A DNA stretch of 64,000 nucleotides from Candidatus Moraniibacteriota bacterium (GCA_049304095.1 JBAQNU010000024.1:87644-151643); one strand, 5' to 3'; counted from the first letter of the stretch, positions 1,359-34,840 are shown. The notes: generated from the sequence alone by a model not told the origin. Numbers and translations are program-made.

Positions 1359-2390
1359 ATGTTTAGCATAATCTCAACTTTTTTATTTTTCCTTCTGCTC
1401 CCCGGATTTCTTCAGGGGAATTTTGATCTTAGTTTGACGCATCAAAAAAACACTATCATTGTCCAGCAACCGGTTGAGGAAAAAGTGTTGGGAGAGGAAA
1501 ATGAGAATGTGTCAACGGAAGACGGAAGCGCGCAAAATATTTTTTCTGCCTACTCGGGTAATGTGGGTATTGTGCCGGTGCGCAAAGCAGATTGTCCTGA
1601 TCTCAAAATGTGGGCGGGAGCTTCTGTTTCCATTGATGTGACGAGCGGAACAATTTTGCATTATGATAATGGAAGGAAGCAGACGCAGATTGCCTCACTT
1701 ACCAAGATAATGACAGCCATTCTGGCCGTGGAAAACATCAAAGATTTTGATGAGGTGGTGACAATTCCCAAAGAAGCGCTCCAGGTTGATGGCACAGTTG
1801 TGGGTTGTCCGACCAGTGTTTTTTGCAATGGCAACCGCATGTTTGTGGGAGAAAAAGTGCGCGCGATTGATCTTTTGAAAGCGATGCTTTTGAATAGCGC
1901 CAATGATGCAGCCACGGCTCTGGGCATTCACATCGCTGGCTCAAAAGAAAATTTTGTGATTATGATGAATGAGCGGGCGCATGAATTGGGACTTATTGAT
2001 ACGCATTTTTGCACTCCATCGGGCCTTGAGATTGATGGACGGGAAAATGAATGTTATTCTTCCGCCTATGACATTGCGCGCATTGGCGCTGAATCAATGA
2101 AGCACGAGCTTATCTGGGAAACAATGAAGATTGAAGAAGGGCAGTTTTTTTCAACCGATGGAAAGCGCATGCATCTATTGAAAAACACTGACTTGCTTTT
2201 GGGCAACATTTCCAATTGCTTGGGAGGAAAAACCGGCTTTACGCCAATGGCGGGAAAATCACTTTTGATGGGGTCTACCGATGTTACGGGAAAACACAAA
2301 ATAATCTCTGTGCTTTTGAATGATGAGAAACGCTGGGAAGATATGCGGACGCTTGTCAACTGGGTGAATAATAGCTATATTTGGAAATAA
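1359..2390 (+). CDS. Serine-type D-alanyl-D-alanine carboxypeptidase (PBP5/DacA family)
   Basis: Signal/TM N-terminus. Active-site motifs SLTK (SxxK), SANDAA (SxN) and KTGFT (KTG) are present. Confidence 0.8.
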   Translation: MFSIISTFLFFLLLPGFLQGNFDLSLTHQKNTIIVQQPVEEKVLGEENENVSTEDGSAQNIFSAYSGNVGIVPVRKADCPDLKMWAGASVSIDVTSGTILHYDNGRKQTQIASLTKIMTAILAVENIKDFDEVVTIPKEALQVDGTVVGCPTSVFCNGNRMFVGEKVRAIDLLKAMLLNSANDAATALGIHIAGSKENFVIMMNERAHELGLIDTHFCTPSGLEIDGRENECYSSAYDIARIGAESMKHELIWETMKIEEGQFFSTDGKRMHLLKNTDLLLGNISNCLGGKTGFTPMAGKSLLMGSTDVTGKHKIISVLLNDEKRWEDMRTLVNWVNNSYIWK

Positions 2391-2404
2391 TTTTTTATAA
2401 TAAT

Positions 2405-2583
2405 AGGAGTTACGCATTTCCCCTCACAGCCATATTGACTAAAAAAATAACTCGAACGCTCTTTTTTCTTTTCAAAACTTTCCCTCTCTCGACGGCATCC
2501 AGTGGAAAGTTTTGAAGAAAAAAGGCATTCTCAGACAGGATTTTTTTAGCCAATACGGCTGACTCGGGTAAATGCGTAAGTCG
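2405..2583 (+). mobile_element. Copy 1 of a ~180-bp MITE-like structured repeat: terminal inverted repeats ttacgcattt / aaatgcgtaa, a long flanking helix and a conserved central 13-bp hairpin (ttcaaaactttcc ... ggaaagttttgaa); flanked by 7-bp direct repeat taataat (2398-2404 and 2584-2590)
   Basis: About 90 percent nucleotide identity to copies at 4847-5030 and 30979-31157. It fills the dacA|mraY spacer. The minus-strand ORF 2410-2601 is an artefact of this repeat. Confidence 0.7.
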
Positions 2584-2593
2584 TAATAATTTT

Positions 2594-3700
2594 ATGGACA
2601 TTGCTCAAATTCAAACTATTCCTGAAGTTGTAAATGCGATGAAAGTGCTCCTTACTGGCTTTTTGGCTTTTGTGATTGCCTTTGCCCTCACTCCGCTCAT
2701 GACTCATTTTTTATATAAATATAAAATTGGAGTCAAAATTAAAACTAATGATGTTTCTGGGGAAAAATTGACTTTTGTCAGTGAGATGCACAAGCATAAA
2801 AGTGGCACGCCAGTGATGGGCGGTATTTTGGTCTGGTTTAGTGTGCTTATTTTAGTCTATGCTTCACATTACCTTTTTCCTTTGATTGCACAATGGACCG
2901 GAGTCAATTTTTTTGCGCGATTGGACTTTCTTAGTCGCAAGCAAGTTTGGTTGCCACTTTTCGCACTTGTGGCGGCTGGAATCTTGGGACTTTGCGATGA
3001 TTGGGCGAGTGTCAAAGGCTTGGGAAAAAACAAGGGCGGTGGGATTAGATTTCTTTCTCGTTTTGGCTGGCTGATTGCTATTTCCGCCTTGGGCGCTTGG
3101 TGGTTTTTCGCTAAATTGGGTTGGGACAAAGTGCATCTTCCGGCAATGGGGGATTTTAGTATTGGTTTTTGGTATATACCGCTTTTTATGTTTATTATCC
3201 TTTTCACGGCAATTTCTTCCAACGAAACGGACGGATTGGATGGCCTTAATGGTGGAGTACTGCTCATTGCCTTTAGTTCATTTGCGCTGATTTCTTTTTC
3301 GCAAAACAAGATGGATCTGGCGGCTTTTTGCGCAGCTATTTCCGGCGCGCTTTTGGCTTTTCTTTGGTTTAATATCTATCCCGCACGTTTTTTTATGGGG
3401 GATACGGGTGCGGTTTCTTTGGGAGCGACGCTTGGCGTGGTGGCGATGCTTACTAATTCAGCCTTGGTTCTCTTGGTGATTGTTTTTATCTATATTCTAG
3501 AATCAGGTTCAGTCGTGATCCAACTCACCTCCAAAAAACTATTCAAACAAAAAGTTTTCCTGGCAGCACCGCTCCATCATCATTTTGAAGCTAAGGGTTG
3601 GCCAGAAACAAAAGTGACGATGCGCGCCTGGATTTTCACGCTGGTCACTGCACTCATTGGCGTGATTGTGGGAATCTTGGGAATGGGGAAATATCATTAA
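2594..3700 (+). CDS. mraY: Phospho-N-acetylmuramoyl-pentapeptide transferase (MraY; polyprenyl-phosphate GlcNAc-1-P transferase superfamily)
   Basis: HKHKSGTPVMGG, LGLCDDW, NETDGLDGL and MGDTGAVSLG motifs; about 10 TM segments. Confidence 0.8.
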   Translation: MDIAQIQTIPEVVNAMKVLLTGFLAFVIAFALTPLMTHFLYKYKIGVKIKTNDVSGEKLTFVSEMHKHKSGTPVMGGILVWFSVLILVYASHYLFPLIAQWTGVNFFARLDFLSRKQVWLPLFALVAAGILGLCDDWASVKGLGKNKGGGIRFLSRFGWLIAISALGAWWFFAKLGWDKVHLPAMGDFSIGFWYIPLFMFIILFTAISSNETDGLDGLNGGVLLIAFSSFALISFSQNKMDLAAFCAAISGALLAFLWFNIYPARFFMGDTGAVSLGATLGVVAMLTNSALVLLVIVFIYILESGSVVIQLTSKKLFKQKVFLAAPLHHHFEAKGWPETKVTMRAWIFTLVTALIGVIVGILGMGKYH

Positions 3701-3718
3701 TTTAGTTTTGCAAAAAAA

Positions 3719-4840
3719 ATGAAAATTGCCATTCAAGCGGCGGACCTCGATGCAAGAAGAATTGATGGTACCCGCGTCTATATCCTCAATCTGCTCAAAT
3801 TTTTTGGACAACTGGACATTACTAGCAAGTTTTTGATCTATCATCGAAAAAAATTTAATCCGGAACTCATTCCGCCGGATTTTTCCAACTACGAAATTAT
3901 TCAAAAAAGCGCACCATTTCTCTGGACGCAAACGCGCTTTGCCTATGAGCTCAAAAAAGACTTGCCAGACGTGCTTTGGATGCCGATGCAGGCCTTGCCT
4001 CTTTTGCGACCAAAAGGCATGCAGACTGTGATCACGGTGCATGATTTGGCTTTCAAAGTTTTTCCCAAGATGTTCCCCAAAAAAGATTTATGGCAATTGA
4101 ATTTTTATGCTGATTATGCGATTAAAAATTCCGACAAAATTATTGCTGTTTCTGCCTCGACGAAAAAAGATATTTTGCGATTTTATCCTAAAATTAATCC
4201 GCAAAAAATTCGGGTGATTCATCATGGTTTCGACGCGGAATTATTTTCTCAAAAAATCGACAAGGAGACGCAAAAAAGATTTCGAGCGAAATATTTAATT
4301 GACGACGCACCCTATTTGCTCTATGTTGGAGCGATTCAGCCGCGCAAAAATCTGGTTACATTAATCGAAGCTTTTGGAAAGCTAAAAGAGACCGGCAATT
4401 ATCCTAAGCTGAAATTAGTTTTGGCTGGCGCGCCGGCTTGGCAAGCGGAAGGCACGCTCGAGGCGGTGCAAAACTCACATTATTCCAAGGAGATTATTCT
4501 CACTGGACGAGTTAGTTTTTCTGATTTGGCTAAATTTTATCAGTGCGCAGATGTATTTATTTTTCCTTCACTCTATGAAGGTTTTGGCATTCCTATTTTG
4601 GAATCTTTCGCTTCCGGCACGCCAGTTATTTGCGCCAATAATTCTTCACTTCCAGAAGTGGCAGGGAACGCCGCACTCTATTTTACCAGTGGAGACGTAG
4701 CTGAACTCGAAACTAAAATTAAAGAAATATTGGAAAATGCTCCATTGAAAGAAAACTTGATCAAAAAAGGTTATTTGCGCTTGGAAGAATTTTCCTGGGA
4801 AAAATGCGCCGAGGAATCTTTGGAGTTTATTAAAATCTAG
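3719..4840 (+). CDS. GT-B glycosyltransferase (GT4-like / glycosyltransferase group 1)
   Basis: C-terminal EGFGIPILESFASGTPVI...E motif typical of retaining GT4 enzymes. Confidence 0.75.
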   Translation: MKIAIQAADLDARRIDGTRVYILNLLKFFGQLDITSKFLIYHRKKFNPELIPPDFSNYEIIQKSAPFLWTQTRFAYELKKDLPDVLWMPMQALPLLRPKGMQTVITVHDLAFKVFPKMFPKKDLWQLNFYADYAIKNSDKIIAVSASTKKDILRFYPKINPQKIRVIHHGFDAELFSQKIDKETQKRFRAKYLIDDAPYLLYVGAIQPRKNLVTLIEAFGKLKETGNYPKLKLVLAGAPAWQAEGTLEAVQNSHYSKEIILTGRVSFSDLAKFYQCADVFIFPSLYEGFGIPILESFASGTPVICANNSSLPEVAGNAALYFTSGDVAELETKIKEILENAPLKENLIKKGYLRLEEFSWEKCAEESLEFIKI

Positions 4841-4846
4841 AGTTAT

Positions 4847-5030
4847 AGAAATTGCGCGTTTACCTTCACAGCTGTATTTTCTAAAAAAATAACTCGAACG
4901 CTCTTTTTTCTTTTCAAAACTTTCCCTCCCTCGACGGCATCCAATGGAAAGTTTTGAAGAAAAAAGGCATTCTCAGACAAGATTTTTTTAGAAAATCCAG
5001 CTGACTCAGGTAAGGGTGCAAGCAAGTCGT
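4847..5030 (+). mobile_element. Copy 2 of the MITE-like repeat, flanked by a perfect 7-bp direct repeat gagttat (4840-4846 and 5031-5037) that overlaps the stop codons of both convergent flanking genes
   Basis: Conserved core shared with copies 1 and 3. The flanking helix sequence differs from the other copies but keeps pairing through compensatory changes. The minus-strand ORF 4843-5025 is an artefact. Confidence 0.7.
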
Positions 5031-5033
5031 GAG

Positions 5034-6827
5034 TTATTTATTCAAAAGATAAATTTTGCCGTTCGTGGTGTTTTCTGTTTTTTGTGGCAAGCCAATTGGA
5101 GCACTAGGCATTTCTTCTGGGTCAAAGGTGGAAAGGAAAGTCCTATCCAGTGCATAATCTTTGTAGACGCTAAATTTAGCAAGAAATCCATCCTTCTCAT
5201 AGAAGGCTAAATTTTTATCGGGAACAATTAGATAGACATTGGAAAATTTTGTTGTGTCAATTTTAGCCAAATCATTGGGGTTAAAAAAATAGACTGCATT
5301 TTTGCCAAAGAGAAAACTCATGGGTGCGCCGAGCATTGACCAGCCATCGCCAGAAGCCAAGCGGTCAACAAGGATAAGATCGGTGTTGGAAAAATTTTCG
5401 CTAAGCTGGTTGGTTTGCGCAGTCAAGTCGGCGTTTTCTCGGAAAGTGAAATAGGGCCAAGAAATAATTAGGTTGGTAATGATTAGAATACTAATCAAGA
5501 TTGACGCATAGATTTTTTTGGTAAACAGTCGATCAATGACGAGAATGGAATAAAAAATCGCTCCAGGAATAATAGTGAAAGCAAAACGTCTGAGCATCCA
5601 GGGATGATCGAGTGAGATGCCGGGATGAATGAGATAGATGAAGGTGGGCAAAATTATGAGAGCAGGCACGAGAATGACGTAGTTTCTTTTGAGCAAAAAA
5701 TAGCTTAGTCCGATTGCTCCAATGATCAGAAATGGCAGGATGTTATAGAGAGAGAATATTTCAAAGAGATAACTAACAGCGGAAAAAGGCACAGAACTGC
5801 TTTCGCCAGGTGAAAATGAGCGTAGAAGACCTTTGAGAGAGGCTAGGTAGAATTGATTATTGACAAATATATTGATGAGATAGACGAAAAAAAATCCGCC
5901 CAAGAGCCAGACTGTTTTTTTCAGTAGTGTTTTTTCCAATCCAAACTTAGTCTTTTTTTGAACTATGCCAAACAGGACTAATAGCATCAAAAGAAATGCC
6001 CAGGTTTCTATTCGAGTGAAAGTGAGGATGAGAAAGGCCGAGAGCGCACCTAGAAGATAGAGAGACTTTTTGAATTTGAAAAATAGGCTGAGCTCTAAAA
6101 GACCAAACCAAATAAAGGCTAGTGCGATATTTTCGCTGAGTGTGAATTTGAAAAGCCAGGCGAAAACAAACGAACTGAAAAGACAACCAAACGCCCAAAA
6201 AGCCGGCTTGGTCGAAGAGTGAAGTTCCGTGAGTAGGAAAAAAGCTAGAAGGAAAAGAAAGAATGTGATGCTGTTGGCAATGACGAACCCAATGAGGCCA
6301 AAGAGGGAGTAGAACGTTGCTAGCCATGCAATGTAGCCAAGGGAAAAATGGGTAATCAGGCTTCCTGAGCGAGTATAATTGAAGCCGGGAAAATTGAGCG
6401 CCGTGCCTGGGCCATAGATTTTGAAAAATTCTTGCGAAGCGGTTGAGCTAAAGGCTAATTGATGATTTTGCGCCAGGCGCACGGCTGCTTCGCTAAAGGA
6501 GCCTTGGTCGCGTCCAGAAAAAACAGTTGGCACAAAAGAGAAGGCTAGGAAAATAATAAAGCCAAGCGAGAGGAATGTAGCGGAAAGGAAACTGGCTGAT
6601 TTCAAAGCTTGACGATTGTGAACGAAAAGCGAGAGGAAGAATGAGCCACCGAAAAAAAGATAGCCAGCCAAAATCGGCCAATAGAAAAAATTAGTTAGCG
6701 CGAGCACAATTGCCAAAACTTCCAGGCCAATGAAAAAGAGTCCTAGAAAAGAAAATAGCTGGTATTTGTTGAGGTTTTTTGGTAGTTTCATTATTCCAAT
6801 TATAGCGTCAAAAATTCTTTTTGCCAA
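5034..6827 (-). CDS. Multi-pass membrane protein, probable GT-C-fold glycosyltransferase (ArnT/PMT-like)
   Basis: More than 10 TM helices N-terminal with an RDQGSFSEAA loop after TM segments (resembles the DE/RDE motif of GT39/GT83 enzymes); soluble C-terminal domain; sits in the glycan locus. Confidence 0.4.
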   Translation of the reverse strand: MAKRIFDAIIGIMKLPKNLNKYQLFSFLGLFFIGLEVLAIVLALTNFFYWPILAGYLFFGGSFFLSLFVHNRQALKSASFLSATFLSLGFIIFLAFSFVPTVFSGRDQGSFSEAAVRLAQNHQLAFSSTASQEFFKIYGPGTALNFPGFNYTRSGSLITHFSLGYIAWLATFYSLFGLIGFVIANSITFFLFLLAFFLLTELHSSTKPAFWAFGCLFSSFVFAWLFKFTLSENIALAFIWFGLLELSLFFKFKKSLYLLGALSAFLILTFTRIETWAFLLMLLVLFGIVQKKTKFGLEKTLLKKTVWLLGGFFFVYLINIFVNNQFYLASLKGLLRSFSPGESSSVPFSAVSYLFEIFSLYNILPFLIIGAIGLSYFLLKRNYVILVPALIILPTFIYLIHPGISLDHPWMLRRFAFTIIPGAIFYSILVIDRLFTKKIYASILISILIITNLIISWPYFTFRENADLTAQTNQLSENFSNTDLILVDRLASGDGWSMLGAPMSFLFGKNAVYFFNPNDLAKIDTTKFSNVYLIVPDKNLAFYEKDGFLAKFSVYKDYALDRTFLSTFDPEEMPSAPIGLPQKTENTTNGKIYLLNK

Positions 6828-10512: not shown

Positions 10513-11463
10513 ATGAGCGAGAAAAAAATAATCTCAATTATTGTTCCGGTCTATAACGAAGAAAAAAACGTGCCGCTTTTCTATAAGAAAATCAGGCCGA
10601 TTTTGGAAAAATTGTCCTATGATTGGGAATTAATTTTCATAAATGATGGCAGTTTAGACAAGAGCATTATTGAATTGGAAAAGCTAGAAAAAGCCGATTC
10701 ATGTGTACGGGTGATTGATTTTTCGCGTAATTTTGGCAAAGAATTGGCAGTGACGGCAGGCATTAATAATTGCCAAGGGGCGGCCTGTATTATTTTGGAC
10801 GCCGATTTGCAACATCCAATTGAAAAGATTCCTGAGTTTGTCGCGAAATGGGAGCGTGGCGCTGAGGTGGTAGTGGGTGTGCGGGAGAAAAATAAAGGCG
10901 AAGGCTGGGTGAAAAAAATGGGATCGTATTTTTTCTATAAACTGATTAACCGCATTTCAGATATGGAAATCGTCACACGTGCAACAGATTATCGCTTGCT
11001 CGATCGTGGAGTAATTGCGGAGTTTAATCGATTGACAGAAAAAAATCGTATGACCAGGGCACTCATTGATTGGCTGGGCTTTCGACGCGAATATATCTAT
11101 TTTGAGGCGAATGAAAGAATTCATGGCGTTCCCTCATACAATTTTTGGAAATTGGTAAAGTTAGCTTTTAATAGTGTGGTTTCTTTTAGTCTTCTGCCTT
11201 TGAAGTTTGCTGGATATCTCGGAATGTTTATTATGCTTTTTTCGGGTGCGGCGGGGCTCTATATACTTTTGGGAAAATATTTTTTTCACACGCCTTTTGC
11301 TTCTACTTTTTCCGATGCGGAGAATCTGGCAATTATGATTGTTTTTCTGGTGGGAATTATTTTGGTTTCCATTGGACTTTTGGCGCTCTATATTGCCAAC
11401 ATTCACACCGAGGTGACGAATCGTCCACTCTACATCGTGCGAAGGCCTAATAAAAAAGAATAA
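10513..11463 (+). CDS. GT2 polyprenyl-phosphate glycosyltransferase (DPM1/ArnC/GtrB-like) with C-terminal TM helices
   Basis: IIVPVYNEE...NDGSLD...DADLQH GT-A motifs plus 2 C-terminal TM segments. Start moved to ATG 10513; the listed ORF overlaps the previous gene. Confidence 0.75.
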   Translation: MSEKKIISIIVPVYNEEKNVPLFYKKIRPILEKLSYDWELIFINDGSLDKSIIELEKLEKADSCVRVIDFSRNFGKELAVTAGINNCQGAACIILDADLQHPIEKIPEFVAKWERGAEVVVGVREKNKGEGWVKKMGSYFFYKLINRISDMEIVTRATDYRLLDRGVIAEFNRLTEKNRMTRALIDWLGFRREYIYFEANERIHGVPSYNFWKLVKLAFNSVVSFSLLPLKFAGYLGMFIMLFSGAAGLYILLGKYFFHTPFASTFSDAENLAIMIVFLVGIILVSIGLLALYIANIHTEVTNRPLYIVRRPNKKE

Positions 11464-29983: not shown

Positions 29984-30037
29984 AGGTTTATTCCAGTATA
30001 GCAGAAAAAGGGATATTTGGGGAAGATTTTTGCTTTG

Positions 30038-30121
30038 TGCCAAAGGAGAGAATCGAACTCTCATGGGATTACTCCCGCACGATTTTGAGTCGTGTGCGTC
30101 TACCAATTCCGCCACTTCGGC
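30038..30121 (-). tRNA. tRNA-Leu (anticodon CAA) with long variable arm
   Basis: Reverse complement folds as a cloverleaf: acceptor stem GCCGAAG/CUUUGGC, D arm, anticodon loop CUCAAAA, 16-nt variable arm, T arm GAGAGTTCGATTCTCTC. CCA is not encoded. Confidence 0.8.
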
Positions 30122-30166: not shown

Positions 30167-30958
30167 ATGGCAAAGATTATTTCATTAGTCAACCAAAAGG
30201 GCGGAGTGGGCAAAACTACCTCGGCCATTAACCTTGCGACATACCTTGCGTCAGCAGGGAAATTTGTGCTCCTTGTTGACCTTGATCCGCAGGGCAATGC
30301 TTCGTCAGGTCTGGGAATTGACATCCGTTCAGTCAAAAAAAGCCTCTATCACACAATGATTTTGGGGGAACACCCGAAAAATGTCATTATGCGTACGGAA
30401 ACATTGGGACACGATTTGATGCCTTCATCGCAAGATTTGGCCGGAGCGGGGATTGAGCTTGTGCACATGGACAATCGCGAATTTCGACTCTACAATGTTC
30501 TGCGTGAAATTCGTACCAGCTATGATTACATCATTATTGATTCGCCACCGAGCCTCGGATTGCTCACGATTAACGGCCTCGTGGCAAGTGATGAAATCAT
30601 TATCCCTGTCCAGACAGAATATTTCGCCCTAGAAGGCTTGAGCCAACTTTTGAATACGATCAGCCTTGTGAAAGAAAATTTACAACCCAAGTTGAAAATT
30701 ATGGGAGCGTTGCTCACGATGTATGACAAGCGCAATCGCTTGTCGCGTCAAGTGGTGAAGGAAGTGCAAGATCATTTTCCCGGGCATGTTTTTGACAGCG
30801 TGATTCCACGCAGTGTGCGCTTGGCTGAAGCGCCAGGATTTGGCAAATCAATCTTAGGATTTGATGCATTTTCTCGTGGCGCGAGGTCATATAAAAGTTT
30901 TGCGAAAGAAGTGATTGGCCTTGAAAAGACAGAGGAGCCAAGAAAATTTAGTGTTTAA
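30167..30958 (+). CDS. parA: Chromosome partitioning ATPase ParA/Soj
   Basis: Deviant Walker A KGGVGKTT; followed by parB. Confidence 0.85.
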   Translation: MAKIISLVNQKGGVGKTTSAINLATYLASAGKFVLLVDLDPQGNASSGLGIDIRSVKKSLYHTMILGEHPKNVIMRTETLGHDLMPSSQDLAGAGIELVHMDNREFRLYNVLREIRTSYDYIIIDSPPSLGLLTINGLVASDEIIIPVQTEYFALEGLSQLLNTISLVKENLQPKLKIMGALLTMYDKRNRLSRQVVKEVQDHFPGHVFDSVIPRSVRLAEAPGFGKSILGFDAFSRGARSYKSFAKEVIGLEKTEEPRKFSV

Positions 30959-30978
30959 AAGATTTATTTAAATAATAT

Positions 30979-31157
30979 AGGAGCTACGCATTTCACCTCG
31001 CAGCCGCATTGACTAAAAAAATAACTCGAACGCTCTTTTTTCTTTTCAAAACTTTCCCTCACTCGGCGGCATCCAATGGAAAGTTTTGAAGAAAAAAGGC
31101 ATTCTCAAACAGGATTTTTTTAGCCAATACGGCTGACTCGGATAAATGCGTAGGTCA
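30979..31157 (+). mobile_element. Copy 3 of the MITE-like repeat, inserted between the parA stop and the parB start
   Basis: Near-identical to copy 1 (same ends aggagnTACGCATTT ... AAATGCGTAgGTC). Degenerate AT-rich flanking repeats (aaataat / aaataaa). Confidence 0.7.
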
Positions 31158-31169
31158 TGAAATAAAAAA

Positions 31170-32102
31170 ATGGCACAAAATTATGGATTAGGTCGGGGAC
31201 TTTCTTCACTTATTCCCCAAAAAGCAAAAAAACTGACTGAACCAGAAGCGGATTTTAATTATTTTGGCTCAGGAAAAAGAGAGGAGAATGATAAGATTGC
31301 ACCAACTAGTGCGCCAAAGTTGATTGAAGACAATGAAGTCGAGATTTCGCGCATCGTGCCCAATCCACATCAACCGCGTTTTCATTTTGATGAAACGAAA
31401 TTGCAAGAGTTGGCCAATTCCATCAAAGAGCATGGCATCATCCAACCGATTGTGGTGAGCAAAAATAATGAAAATAGTTTTGAAATTATTGCCGGGGAAC
31501 GGCGTTTTCAGGCTGCCAAACTGGCGGGACTACTGAAAGTGCCGGTGGTGGTGCGTGATGTAACAGAGCAACAAAAACTAGAGCTGGCGATTATTGAAAA
31601 CATTCAACGGCACGATTTAAATCCAGTGGAAGAGGCCAGATCATATCAAAAACTAATTGATGAGTTTGATTTGAGTCAAGAAGAAGCGGCCACAAAACTT
31701 GGTAAGAGTCGCTCTTCCGTGGCGAATAAGTTACGAATTTTAAGTTTGCCGGTGGAGATTCAAAAAGCGCTGATGGAAGGCAAGATCACCGAAGGTCATG
31801 CCAAGGCAATTCTCGCCATTGAAAACCCCGAAAAGCAAAAAGCGCTATACGAGCTAATTTTGAAAAGTGGTCTGACGGTGCGTCAAACGGAAGAGAAAAC
31901 CAAAGAAGTTTCCGTACGCACACACAAACGCTTAGTCAATGTCGACCCAGAGCAAAAAGCTCTAGAAGACAATCTTTCGCAAGCCCTGAAAACAAAAGTC
32001 AAACTGCAAAAATCCGGCACCGGCGGAAAAATTGTGATTGAATTTTATTCCCAAGAGGAGTTGCAAAGCATCGCAGAGAATATCGAGAGGATTGGGAGAT
32101 AA
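31170..32102 (+). CDS. parB: Chromosome partitioning protein ParB/Spo0J
   Basis: ParB box IIAGERRFQAAKLAG and HTH domain. Confidence 0.85.
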   Translation: MAQNYGLGRGLSSLIPQKAKKLTEPEADFNYFGSGKREENDKIAPTSAPKLIEDNEVEISRIVPNPHQPRFHFDETKLQELANSIKEHGIIQPIVVSKNNENSFEIIAGERRFQAAKLAGLLKVPVVVRDVTEQQKLELAIIENIQRHDLNPVEEARSYQKLIDEFDLSQEEAATKLGKSRSSVANKLRILSLPVEIQKALMEGKITEGHAKAILAIENPEKQKALYELILKSGLTVRQTEEKTKEVSVRTHKRLVNVDPEQKALEDNLSQALKTKVKLQKSGTGGKIVIEFYSQEELQSIAENIERIGR

Positions 32103-32140
32103 AATATTAAATTAACAAAAATTAACTTTAATCAAAAAAT

Positions 32141-32671
32141 ATGGAAAATATTTACAAGCGCGACGTTCGGCCTGGTAATTGGGAAGACTTACAGCATGAT
32201 AAAAGGGCTAATAGCCTCTTAAATTTAAACGAAAACTTAAATTTTCTTGGATTGAAAAAACAAATCACGTCCGATTCGAATATATTAGATATTGGCTCAG
32301 GGAAAGGAGCATTTTCGGAACAATCGATGGAAGAGGGTTTTAAAAATACGATTTCACTTGATATAAATCCAAGGAGCAATAATAAATCATTGAATGAAGT
32401 TAAGGCCAGAATTGAAAGACTTCCTTTTGCTGATGAAACACTTGACCTTGTTCATTCTCAAATGTGTTTTGATGATGAGGTTTATAAACAAAATCAAAAG
32501 CAGATGATGGCAGAAATCGCAAGAGTTTTAAAAAAAGGAGGAATTTATTTTTCATCTGAATATTATTTAAACTCTCAAATTGCTGAAGAGTGTGGACTAA
32601 AGAGAATGATACCTAAAGGGAGGTATCCAGGATATATTGGAGTAGCATCAATTTATTCAAAAGCTGAATAA
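32141..32671 (+). CDS. Class I SAM-dependent methyltransferase
   Basis: Motif I ILDIGSGKGAFSE and post-I acidic residue (SLDIN). Confidence 0.6.
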   Translation: MENIYKRDVRPGNWEDLQHDKRANSLLNLNENLNFLGLKKQITSDSNILDIGSGKGAFSEQSMEEGFKNTISLDINPRSNNKSLNEVKARIERLPFADETLDLVHSQMCFDDEVYKQNQKQMMAEIARVLKKGGIYFSSEYYLNSQIAEECGLKRMIPKGRYPGYIGVASIYSKAE

Positions 32672-32708
32672 AAGGGATTTTTTGTAAATTTGACGTTTAT
32701 TCGTTTTT

Positions 32709-32960
32709 GTGCTAATGTCGTGGTATAAAGTAATTAATTATATGCGTAAAATTGATCTAAAAAATGTGGTTTGGAAAGAGGGGGAGTATTATGTTGCCCA
32801 GTGTTTGAACGTGGACGTTTCTAGCTTTGGAACAACCAAAAAAGAGGCACTGTGCGCATTAGACGAAGCACTTGAATTATATTTTGAGGATATAAAAGTT
32901 CCCAAAGTGACTAGCATTGAAAGACCGGAACTTGTCCAAATGTCAATTTGCCATGCCTAA
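32709..32960 (+). CDS. hicB: HicB-family antitoxin (UPF0150, RNase-H-like fold)
   Basis: 83-aa protein with the YVAQCLNVDVSSFGTTKKEALCALDEALELYFE pattern; overlaps hicA by 8 nt (ATGCCTAA). Confidence 0.6.
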   Translation: MLMSWYKVINYMRKIDLKNVVWKEGEYYVAQCLNVDVSSFGTTKKEALCALDEALELYFEDIKVPKVTSIERPELVQMSICHA

Positions 32961-33171
32961 ACTTTATTCATCTTCAGAAATTATCAAAGTCCTGCAAAAA
33001 CGGGGCTTTGTTTATATTTCCCAAAAAGGCAGTCACGCAAAATTTAGAAAAACTGCCAGTCCAACCTTGACAGCGATTGTTCCAGCGGGGAAAAGAGAAA
33101 TTCCTTTTGGAACTTTCAGATCAATTTTGCGTCAAGCTAATCTAAGTGAAGATGATTTTAGGAAAAAATAA
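32953..33171 (+). CDS. hicA: HicA-family mRNA interferase toxin
   Basis: GSHAKFRK...VPAGKREIPFGTFRSILRQANL matches the HicA/YcfA family. Start set to MPKLYSS, overlapping the hicB stop. Confidence 0.6.
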   Translation: MPKLYSSSEIIKVLQKRGFVYISQKGSHAKFRKTASPTLTAIVPAGKREIPFGTFRSILRQANLSEDDFRKK

Positions 33172-33179
33172 TTCCCTGT

Positions 33180-33206
33180 GTCATCCCCGAGAAGTCGGGG
33201 ATCCAG
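33180..33206 (-). repeat. Small GC-rich palindromic element, inverted-orientation variant gtcat-ccccga-gaag-tcgggg-atccag
   Basis: Same flanks (ctggat...atgac) as the elements at 33308-33335 and 55778-55805; the stem sequence differs but pairing is kept by compensatory changes. Confidence 0.6.
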
Positions 33207-33307
33207 GCACCTCAGGTAATAAAAAAAGAAAAACGAGATTTATTAGTTAAGAAATAGAAGTTAGAGGATTTATAATTCGATTGTTTGTAATCTATAGCCA
33301 GTGGAAC

Positions 33308-33335
33308 CTGGATTCCCGCCTTCGCGGGAATGACA
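33308..33335 (+). repeat. Small GC-rich palindromic element ctgga-ttcccgc-cttc-gcgggaa-tgaca
   Basis: 28-nt identical copy also at 55778-55805. Confidence 0.65.
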
Positions 33336-33343
33336 TTTCTTAG

Positions 33344-34840
33344 CTACAACAAATTATCCTTTTTCAAATACTTCTTAATATGACTCTTAGCCGCAGACGT
33401 GCGGACGAATTTTAGCCAGTCGCGGCTGGGATTTTTGTGGTCGCGAGAAGTGATGATGTCGATTACTTCGCCATTTTGAATCTTATAATCCAAAGTGACC
33501 ATCTTGCCGTTCGCTTTGGCTCCTGTGGCGCGATTGCCAATTTCACTGTGCACGCGATAGGCAAAATCAATCGGCGTGGCGTCTTCCGGCAAATCAATGA
33601 TGTCGCCCAGTGGAGTGAAGGCAAAAATGTGATTTTTGAAAAAATCTAATTTGAGACCCTCCATAAATTCTTGATTGTCCGTGCCCAGTTCAGTTTGCCA
33701 TTCGCGCAGTTGCTTGACCCAAACTAGATCTTCTTCCGGTACAGCGTGCTTGCTTTTGATAAAGAAATTTTTCAACGTGCGCTTTTTTTCGGAATAGATC
33801 CAGTGCGAAGCGATACCATATTCCGCTTCGTCATCCATTTTTTTGGTGCGAATTTGCACTTCTAGGAATGTGCCTTCTGGACCAAAGATTGTCGTGTGAA
33901 TGGATTGATAGCCATTGGGCTTAGGTAGGGAAATATAATCCTTGATTCGTCCAACTAGTGGGCGATATTTTTTATGCACAATACCCAGTGTTTCATAGCA
34001 ATTAGCCAAGTCTGGCACAATCACGCGCACACCAACCAGGTCATAAATTTTGCTAATATCCATGTCATGACGTTTTAGTTTTTGAAAGAGGCTGTGCAAA
34101 TGTTTGGTTCGGCCAAAAATATCGAGCACATTAATGCCTTCCTTGAGCAGTTCTTTTTTGAGCTCATTGACAATGCGATCGATATTTTTTCGGCGTTGTC
34201 CATATTGATCGTGCAATAACTGCTTAGTATAGTTGTAGTTTTTTAGATCAAGATATTGAAAAGCCAGATCTTCCAAGCGCACTTTGACTTCTCCGATTCC
34301 CAGACGGTTAGCAATTGGCACATAGACTTCCATAGTTTCCAAGGCGATGCGTTGTTGTTTTTCCGGTGGCAAATATTCTAGCGTCTCCATATTGTGCAAA
34401 CGGTCAGCCAGCTTTATGAGCACCACACGAATATCAGATGCCATGGCCAGAAACATTTTGCGCAAATTTTCCAAATACAATTCTTCCTTTGTTCCGCGCA
34501 ACTTAATCTTTCCTAGTTTTGTTACGCCGTCCACAAGACTTGCAATTTCTTTGCCAAATTTTTGCTCGATTTCTTTGAGCGTTACTTGTGTATCTTCCGG
34601 GACATCATGCAGAAGTCCTGCGGTGATTGTTTTTGCGCCAAGTCCGATTTTGGCCAAGTTAAGTGCTGTGTTTAGAGGGTGCTCAATATATTCATCGGTG
34701 CCAGATTTCCTTTTTTGTCCCAAATGAGCCTTTTCCGCCATAACATAGGCACTTCTAATTAGCGCCTCGTGCTTGAAATCGAGTTTGAATTTGACATTTT
34801 TGAGGACATCATCAATGGTTATTTTTTTTTCCGCAAACAT
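33344..34840 (-). CDS. rel: Bifunctional (p)ppGpp synthetase/hydrolase (Rel/SpoT homolog, short form)
   Basis: HD hydrolase motif (LLHDVPEDT) and synthetase motif RIKDYISLPKPNGYQSIHTTI. Confidence 0.8.
   Translation of the reverse strand: MFAEKKITIDDVLKNVKFKLDFKHEALIRSAYVMAEKAHLGQKRKSGTDEYIEHPLNTALNLAKIGLGAKTITAGLLHDVPEDTQVTLKEIEQKFGKEIASLVDGVTKLGKIKLRGTKEELYLENLRKMFLAMASDIRVVLIKLADRLHNMETLEYLPPEKQQRIALETMEVYVPIANRLGIGEVKVRLEDLAFQYLDLKNYNYTKQLLHDQYGQRRKNIDRIVNELKKELLKEGINVLDIFGRTKHLHSLFQKLKRHDMDISKIYDLVGVRVIVPDLANCYETLGIVHKKYRPLVGRIKDYISLPKPNGYQSIHTTIFGPEGTFLEVQIRTKKMDDEAEYGIASHWIYSEKKRTLKNFFIKSKHAVPEEDLVWVKQLREWQTELGTDNQEFMEGLKLDFFKNHIFAFTPLGDIIDLPEDATPIDFAYRVHSEIGNRATGAKANGKMVTLDYKIQNGEVIDIITSRDHKNPSRDWLKFVRTSAAKSHIKKYLKKDNLL

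Follow-up and report, generated by a model that had tools for sequence, protein, structure and literature searches.

The DNA considered here is a stretch of 64,000 nucleotides (nt) from a Candidatus Moraniibacteriota bacterium (GCA_049304095.1 JBAQNU010000024.1:87644-151643), referred to below as the window, and the subject is a near-palindromic non-coding repeat of about 182 nt that occurs in it as three direct plus-strand copies, 87-94% identical. Homologues of the window's proteins carry the names Candidatus Moranbacteria or Moraniibacteriota (Parcubacteria, Candidate Phyla Radiation, CPR). Direct-repeat comparison of the window placed the copies at 2403-2582, 4845-5024, and 30977-31156 on the plus strand. 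The second copy (W2) spans 186 nt at 4846..5031 of the plus strand, from TAGAAATTGCGC to GCAAGTCGTG, once its bounds are set from an in-register 5-bp duplication and from empty sites in relatives. It sits between the stop codons of two genes, a plus-strand open reading frame (ORF) for a GT1-type glycosyltransferase (3719-4840, TAG stop at 4838-4840) and a convergent minus-strand gene of 597 amino acids (aa; 5034-6827), whose TAA stop reads TTA at 5034-5036. Copy 1 (W1; 181 nt, 2404..2584, plus strand) has a D-Ala-D-Ala carboxypeptidase gene (1359-2390) on its left and a GT4 (Glycos_transf_4) gene (2594-3700) on its right, ending 9 nt before the ATG of the latter, and copy 3 (W3; 182 nt, 30978..31159, plus strand) splits parA (30167-30958) from parB (31170-32102). 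All three spacers are intergenic and very short. The repeat is very probably a new family of MITEs (miniature inverted-repeat transposable elements) in a CPR bacterium, that is, a known kind of element with a maintained hairpin.

A metagenome scan identified nine further copies, all in sample Ga0172379 and on contigs that share only the element with the window, and three more are present in a related genome (ERZ27247824, here L021), which brings the family to at least 15 copies. Sizes range from 181 to 202 nt and the sequence is AT-rich. The consensus ends are T-AGGAG... at the left and ...GTCRT-R at the right, also written TAGGAGTTACGCATTT...AAATGCGTAAGTCGTG.

Insertion of the element is recorded in its flanks. 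When the flanks of 11 complete copies were aligned on the element ends, 43 of 55 left-right positions matched in one register, compared with an average of 22.4 and a highest value of 40 over 100,000 permutations. Six of the 11 copies carry a perfect pentamer in this common register, and W1 (AATAA at 2399..2403 and 2585..2589) does so once its register is moved by 1 nt; the pentamers are AT-rich and not the same in every copy (AATAA, AGTTA, AAGTT, TTATT, AAACT, ATTAA, and AATCT). The duplication at W2 is AGTTA, found at 4841..4845 directly 3' of the TAG stop and again at 5032..5036, where the final three bases of the right-hand repeat (5034-5036) serve as the convergent gene's stop codon. The original prediction had described a perfect 7-bp duplication here, gagttat at 4840-4846 and 5031-5037, overlapping both stops. 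The heptamers and the overlap are as described, but the true duplication is 5 bp long. On the left, the heptamer opens with the G that closes the native TAG stop, and the corresponding g on the right closes the element; at the other end of the heptamer, the left-hand t opens the element and the right-hand T belongs to native flank. The extra G and T thus agree only by chance with the end bases of the element. At W3, the left flank TAATA (30973..30977) agrees with the right-hand AAATA (31160..31164) at four of five positions, and the junction (30967-30977, 31160-31169), in low-complexity A/T sequence, is inexact, with an extra ATA at the left and a missing CA at the right relative to the empty sites TTAAATACAAAAAAATGG.

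Comparison with relatives places the duplication in an evolutionary context. The original prediction proposed to check whether the two genes beside W2 abut directly, with a single copy of the target, where the element is absent. They do so in genomes L020 and L022, lying 2 nt apart around one AATTA (CTA[A/G]-AATTA-TTTATTC), and L021 carries the same insertion with AGTTA on both sides and the same divergent outer helix. Nucleotide identity to the window in the 597-aa gene is 96% for L020, 87% for L021, and 78% for L022. It may be noted that the filled alleles read AGTTA and the empty alleles AATTA (window 4841-5036, L020 7755-7765, L021 7797-7982, L022 4970-4980). The W1 site is empty in L022, where a single AATAA is followed by TTTTATGG, and filled in L021; the W3 site is empty in four relatives (L023, L024, L062, and L063), one of them 90-98% identical to the window. 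An unoccupied target is also present in the window, CCTAA at 11446..11450, where L021 is filled (L021 1198-1378, minus strand). These filled and empty sites indicate that the element is, or recently was, mobile, and with alleles of both kinds at several sites in genomes 80-98% identical, they constitute a clean natural experiment. As the duplicated pentamer regenerates what it overlaps, the insertions are harmless: W2 lands on a stop codon, and W3 splits parA from parB without harm.

The repeat is thus small and dispersed, with terminal inverted repeats, a duplication of constant length, empty sites, and no transposase gene, as is characteristic of a MITE. It can be proposed that the element is mobilized in trans, or was until recently, most likely by a transposase that makes 5-bp staggered cuts and is encoded elsewhere than in the window. 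Insertion occurs into AT-rich pentamers within the very short intergenic spacers of Candidatus Moranbacteria genomes, and the target duplication allows the element to land on a stop codon (W2) or a few bases before a start codon (W1, W3) with the genes left unbroken. The inserted element may then be co-transcribed with its neighbors, nearly always in one orientation, and its hairpin is thereafter maintained, the outer helix changing on both arms jointly and the inner two thirds staying identical across genomes.

A search for coding or regulatory content of a familiar kind accords with a non-coding element. Minus-strand ORFs of 60-63 aa span W1 and W2 and are broken in W3 and most other copies, and a small protein gene was rejected on this basis. 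An intrinsic terminator was also rejected, as what comes after the hairpin arms is A-rich or mixed and has no T-run, and a consensus scan of positions 2200-5300 showed no promoter-like or terminator-like site within W1 or W2. The only match of the window to Rfam 15 at gathering score is tRNA-Leu, and a permissive search of Rfam gave for the element only generic hairpin matches of the microRNA-precursor kind, far under threshold. Viral, phage, and plasmid collections contained no match outside the element's own family. An exact-pattern scan of species-representative genomes yielded chance hits only. Loop-only matches in other organisms (L001-L004, L006, L007, and L009-L011) are in GC-rich DNA without the hairpin, and were set aside as chance or coding sequence.

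Structurally, the element is an imperfect palindrome over nearly its entire length. The terminal inverted repeats, with TAGGAGTTACGCATTTCCCC... at the left end corresponding to the reverse-complemented right end, CACGACTTACGCATTTACCC..., continue inward to a 20-nt loop. Folded as RNA, W2 reaches -68.9 kcal/mol (z = -7.8, none of 200 shuffles being as stable), and folded as DNA -41.4 kcal/mol (z = -7.6, again with no shuffle as stable). The inner helix and loop of W2 occupy 4896..4972 of the plus strand, with 4896-4925 pairing with 4946-4972 around the loop CTCCCTCGACGGCATCCAAT (4926-4945), which contains hypervariable positions. The three variable loop positions noted in the original prediction, alongside fixed stems, are seen again in the larger set: with 13-15 copies, four to six loop positions vary and the inner helix is invariant across all copies. 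At loop columns 84, 89, 98, and 99 (4929, 4934, 4943, and 4944 in W2), every combination of alleles occurs and orthologous copies differ at four of four; these columns may be free sites at saturation or else single-stranded positions prone to hypermutation.

The outer helices behave differently. Alignment A2, which covers 13 complete copies, gives a consensus hairpin of 57 pairs, seven of which show pair-keeping changes on both sides; neither this count nor the covariation score was reached in any of 500 column shuffles, and the signal collapses once partners are slid by 1-3 columns. The covariation expected by the original prediction is therefore present in the aligned copies. Double changes arose in at least four lineages, at 7/196 (W3, L017), at 10/193 (L005), at 11/192 (L012b, L008), and in the lineage of copy 2 at four pairs (9/194, 20/183, 28/174, and 34/168). 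The alignment bears out that the outer helix of W2 differs from that of copies 1 and 3. Among 36 outer pairs, the copy-2 lineage has eight changed positions in the left arm (4852..4890, plus strand, A2 columns 7-45; changes at columns 9, 13, 17, 20, 28, 29, 34, and 35) and eight in the right arm (4982..5021, plus strand, A2 columns 157-196; changes at columns 194, 190, 189, 183, 174, 172, 168, and 167). Six of the eight left-arm changes face changed partners, five of them giving Watson-Crick pairs (hypergeometric p = 3.6e-4), and two consensus mismatches, 29/173 and 35/167, became pairs. The three double changes originally pointed out all keep pairing (C-G to T-A at 28/174, G-C to T-A at 34/168, and A.C to G-C at 29/173), and to these the alignment adds 9/194, 20/183, and 35/167.

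The arms are coupled; selection acting on a folded strand and templated correction between arms are both possible causes, singly or together. Any long inverted repeat can be kept paired by template switching and by conversion between copies, and it is possible that the compensatory changes arose mechanically, through intrastrand template switching in a quasi-palindrome with perhaps some inter-copy conversion, and without selection. At columns 34-35 of W2, GA>TT is mirrored by CC>AA at 167-168, a double transversion without a wobble path; one arm was perhaps copied from the other, and the change suggests templated copying at the DNA level, which it fits at least as well as selection. The conversion of both consensus mismatches into perfect pairs in the same lineage points in the same direction, as does the lack of strand asymmetry in the wobble pairs. 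Copies also appear to exchange sequence or seed one another, as L021a and L021c share the derived loop CACGGGGCGG that W1 lacks. Template switching would, however, leave unexplained why the center of the element is identical between genomes and not just between arms, and why the copies are biased in orientation. Changes on both arms that did not restore a pair (G.G at 13/190 and A.A at 18/185) also speak against it, and about nine G.U states persist that frequent arm-to-arm copying would erase. Beside this account stands the observation that the two L021 copies with the shared loop variant (L021 10241-10400 and L021 1198-1378) are not orthologous, and that W1 is the ortholog of the first; this suggests that resident copies seed new ones or convert each other.

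Conservation between genomes was compared as well. Orthologous copies in the window and L021 are about 95% identical, at 176 of 186 positions for W2 and 159 of 167 for W1, whereas 4-fold degenerate sites of three flanking genes are only 50-71% identical, and W2 is therefore, as had been proposed, no passively decaying copy. The differences are confined to the loop, bulges, and outermost stem: a single difference occurs among approximately 105 central non-loop positions (P ~1e-14 under the lowest neutral rate), and A2 columns 36-83 and 100-166 show little or no variation in any copy, with at least three genomes represented. Where the family does vary, the W2 orthologs differ at about 10 of about 35 positions, near the divergence of third codon positions (23-26%), from which the copies would appear to be old, with a fixed set of free sites. 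Orientation is biased. In 11 of 12 copies the plus strand runs in the same sense as the neighboring genes (p = 0.006; the exception is L014), and between co-directional gene pairs the co-oriented copies number eight to one (p = 0.04). The directions of transcription and replication are inseparable in this comparison, because most window genes lie on one strand.

The original prediction went further and took the compensatory changes as the signature of a hairpin selected in RNA or single-stranded DNA (ssDNA). The compensation is indeed non-random and the copies do not decay, but selection at the level of RNA or ssDNA is not established by these features. A strand-specific signal was sought in the wobble pairs. 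In the plus-strand structure given by RNAalifold, all 10 one-sided changes are G.U on the sense strand, with a mirror pattern in the inverted copy L014, and third-position substitution rates reveal no mutational bias that would produce this (P ~0.001 from neutral third-position rates). We nevertheless withdraw the signal: the RNAalifold structure is biased, because the algorithm accepts G.U and rejects A.C columns, and a symmetric palindromic register gives 10-11 wobble events on the sense strand versus 3-4 A.C events (p ~0.1). In the family consensus, A.C appositions of the plus strand are G.U on the minus strand, and in every copy the minus-strand fold is more stable than that of the plus strand by about 13 kcal/mol.

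It is possible, though less likely than not, that the copies, although of MITE origin, are now kept by the host as intercistronic RNA structures, serving for instance as a site of processing by RNase III or another enzyme, as a stabilizer of mRNA ends, or as an insulator. Such an exapted hairpin would explain both the conservation at sequence level and the orientation bias. The center is invariant in at least three genomes whose synonymous sites have diverged by 29-50%, orthologs differ only at positions that are free across the family (about 10 of about 35), the copies are co-oriented with genes in 11 of 12 cases, and the helix is kept by double changes. Repeats of the bcr type in Bacillus cereus are, moreover, transcribed in operons and untranslated regions (UTRs) (PMC3446304). 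Against exaptation, close relatives thrive without the element at all three sites, terminator-like and promoter-like sites are absent from it, the wobble signal is not significant, and the antisense strand folds better. Both arms of the inner helix are also invariant and show no covariation, which is unusual for a structured RNA.

A broader form of the same idea looks beyond a parasite altogether. The inner ~110 nt may be under purifying selection at the level of sequence across genomes as diverged as species, and with the one-orientation copies in operons the element could represent a MITE-borne functional module of CPR bacteria, a proposal we regard as possible but less likely than not. For example, it might act as a processing or stability hairpin in polycistronic mRNAs whose translation does not begin from a Shine-Dalgarno (SD) sequence, or as the recognition site of a dedicated protein. 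The hairpin rather than the termini would then be recognized by the mobilizing machinery, the host, or both. If the conservation does reflect function, it would suggest a hairpin-based layer of control over operon transcripts in unculturable organisms. If it instead reflects conversion from arm to arm and copy to copy, the element would be a compact example of self-maintenance by palindromic DNA. The reading we prefer is that the hairpin is retained through tolerance, or through use as a self-contained hairpin in mRNA, helped by arm-to-arm correction at the DNA level.

A ribosome-binding role was considered and rejected. Eight copies have an ATG 5-16 nt past the element, and the TAGGAG of the left end could be envisaged as an SD sequence brought near the start codon by the hairpin. 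This bridged site was discarded because SD-like 4-mers precede only 8 of 49 window genes, leaders are A/T-rich, and empty sites have no SD sequence. The count itself, which covers any SD-like 4-mer within 25 nt upstream, is of separate interest, as this host seems to initiate translation largely without SD pairing.

Several observations weigh against the MITE assignment and deserve to be considered together. The first is the distribution of the W2 insertion, which conflicts with the tree of the flanking genes: L020 is the closest relative of the window for both of these genes and L021 is more distant, yet the insertion is shared with L021 and absent from L020. This distribution needs either excision plus back mutation, or sorting and recombination of old alleles. 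A recombination tract as its cause was rejected, as the near flanks in the window resemble L020 and not L021. Second, an autonomous partner was not found: there is no transposase among 49 window ORFs, and there are no solitary element ends in approximately 200 kb of related loci. Third, the element varies most at its termini and is invariant at its center, unlike classical MITEs, whose termini are the most conserved. Fixed MITE copies are also expected to decay, which these do not, and a recognizable duplication is missing in 3 of the 11 copies. The 49 large ORFs (at least 150 aa) have housekeeping functions or no Pfam match, and neither a Y1 transposase nor RAYT or TnpA is encoded among the window ORFs.

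Some of these features raise the question of whether a DDE transposase moved the element at all. A process resembling site-specific recombination, a pathway through an ssDNA hairpin, or an RNA intermediate with target-primed reverse transcription could each leave short duplications, with the folded hairpin itself as substrate. The poorly conserved termini around an invariant core, the lack of a nearby transposase, and the co-varying arms would fit such a route, and for bcr elements a connection with a recombination-like process at TTTAT motifs has been drawn (PMC6542083). We consider it improbable, however, as the pentamers vary from copy to copy, which is typical of staggered-cut transposition and not of recombination at a fixed core, as the Y1/HUH systems (IS200/IS605, REP) leave no duplication, and as neither a reverse transcriptase nor a poly-A-like tail was seen. 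An assembly artefact or chance similarity in AT-rich DNA can be dismissed, since, although all data are metagenome-assembled and short-k assemblies (Logan contigs L019 and L066) break inside the element, it occurs with different flanks in independent NCBI, JGI, and ENA assemblies, with exact breakpoints and precise empty alleles. Those breaks also have a practical consequence, in that the element fragments short-read assemblies of these genomes.

For a MITE moved in trans, several bacterial families offer points of comparison, and the closest analogue in kind is bcr1 of group A (bcr1-bcr3). In the Bacillus cereus group, bcr1 is about 155 bp long, has 5-bp direct repeats, and is transcribed, with compensatory changes (PMC3184786, PMC3446304); its transcription occurs in UTRs and operon spacers, and its long double-stranded structure is kept by base-pair compensatory changes (PMC3184786, PMC3446304, PMC6542083). 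Like bcr1, the Moranbacteria element is non-coding, of roughly 150-200 bp, dispersed in intergenic regions, flanked by 5-bp direct repeats, and differently distributed between close strains. The two have no sequence similarity, however, and their hosts are far apart (CPR Moranbacteria versus Firmicutes). The repeat of bcr1 is a fixed TTTAT, whereas the pentamers here are variable and AT-rich and none is TTTAT, and the element is accordingly not a member of bcr1. Its inner hairpin, invariant across species-level divergence, is a further difference.

Other families share the palindrome and differ in how they insert. ERIC/IRU and Correia elements (CREE/NEMIS) are reportedly imperfect palindromes over their whole length of 100-160 bp, as described by De Gregorio et al. 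and in the Correia literature. They are found in enterobacteria and Neisseria as transcribed intergenic insertions, and form long RNA hairpins with orientation-dependent effects on mRNA. The Moranbacteria element likewise folds as a long hairpin over its whole length. It nevertheless duplicates 5 bp where these elements duplicate TA, and has no sequence similarity to them, and the IHF sites and promoter parts that Correia elements carry were not detected in it. REP/REPIN elements (RAYT, Y1) and those derived from IS200/IS605 are GC-rich hairpins of 20-40 nt, paired in REPINs, that insert without target duplication. They are also intergenic palindromes, in which the folded single strand is the substrate and pairing is maintained. 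Because the Moranbacteria element has a 5-bp duplication, these types are excluded, and its length of 182 nt, its AT-richness, and the lack of RAYT or TnpA in the window also set it apart.

MITEs derived from Tn3 or insertion sequences (IS) come closer in their mode of insertion. The integron mobilization unit (IMU) has terminal inverted repeats and a 5-bp duplication, and its mobilization in trans has been shown experimentally (PMC3184786, where general features of MITEs are also reviewed). IMU and NFM2-MITE resemble the Moranbacteria element in both of these traits. The inverted repeats of IMU match ISSod9, whereas no insertion sequence matching the Moranbacteria element was identified, and IMU-type MITEs are palindromic only at their ends, whereas this element is so over its whole length.

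Our searches of the literature returned no description of a MITE in CPR bacteria. The genomes of this group, small and compact as they are, are considered to hold few mobile repeats.

A smaller palindrome was observed within the family. Three Ga0172379 copies carry a nested, perfect 20-nt palindrome, CCTGCCTGCCGGCAGGCAGG, which has entered the right arm between GGCATTC and TCAAACAGG and left no duplication there (L008 732-751, L017 4161-4180, and, with one mismatch, L015 ~1663-1682). The same sequence, which the window lacks, is present at 42 sites in 35 viral-contig stretches (L027-L061); the GC content of these contigs is 38-68%, the flanks are unrelated, and chance would give fewer than one site. 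Many of these viral sites are flanked by 7-14-nt direct repeats, and some lie inside tRNA genes, in the variable arm of a tRNA-Met (L051) and in a D-loop (L058). No paper containing the sequence was found, and the alternatives are a very small insertion of wide distribution and an artefact of technical origin.

Two further differences between the window and L062, the relative that is 90-98% identical, were noted near W3. A 1.24-kb stretch of the window (32102-33344) is absent from L062, where parB directly precedes the RelA/SpoT gene; the stretch holds a methyltransferase gene (32141-32671) and a small pair resembling DUF7387 and a HicA toxin, and it looks like a small accessory island. Conversely, in the vicinity of the tRNA-Leu gene (30037-30121), an additional stretch of about 1.5 kb that is not in the window is present in L062 (L062 5491-7057 versus window 29985-30078), with two ORFs, one of which gives a faint match to LAGLIDADG homing endonucleases.

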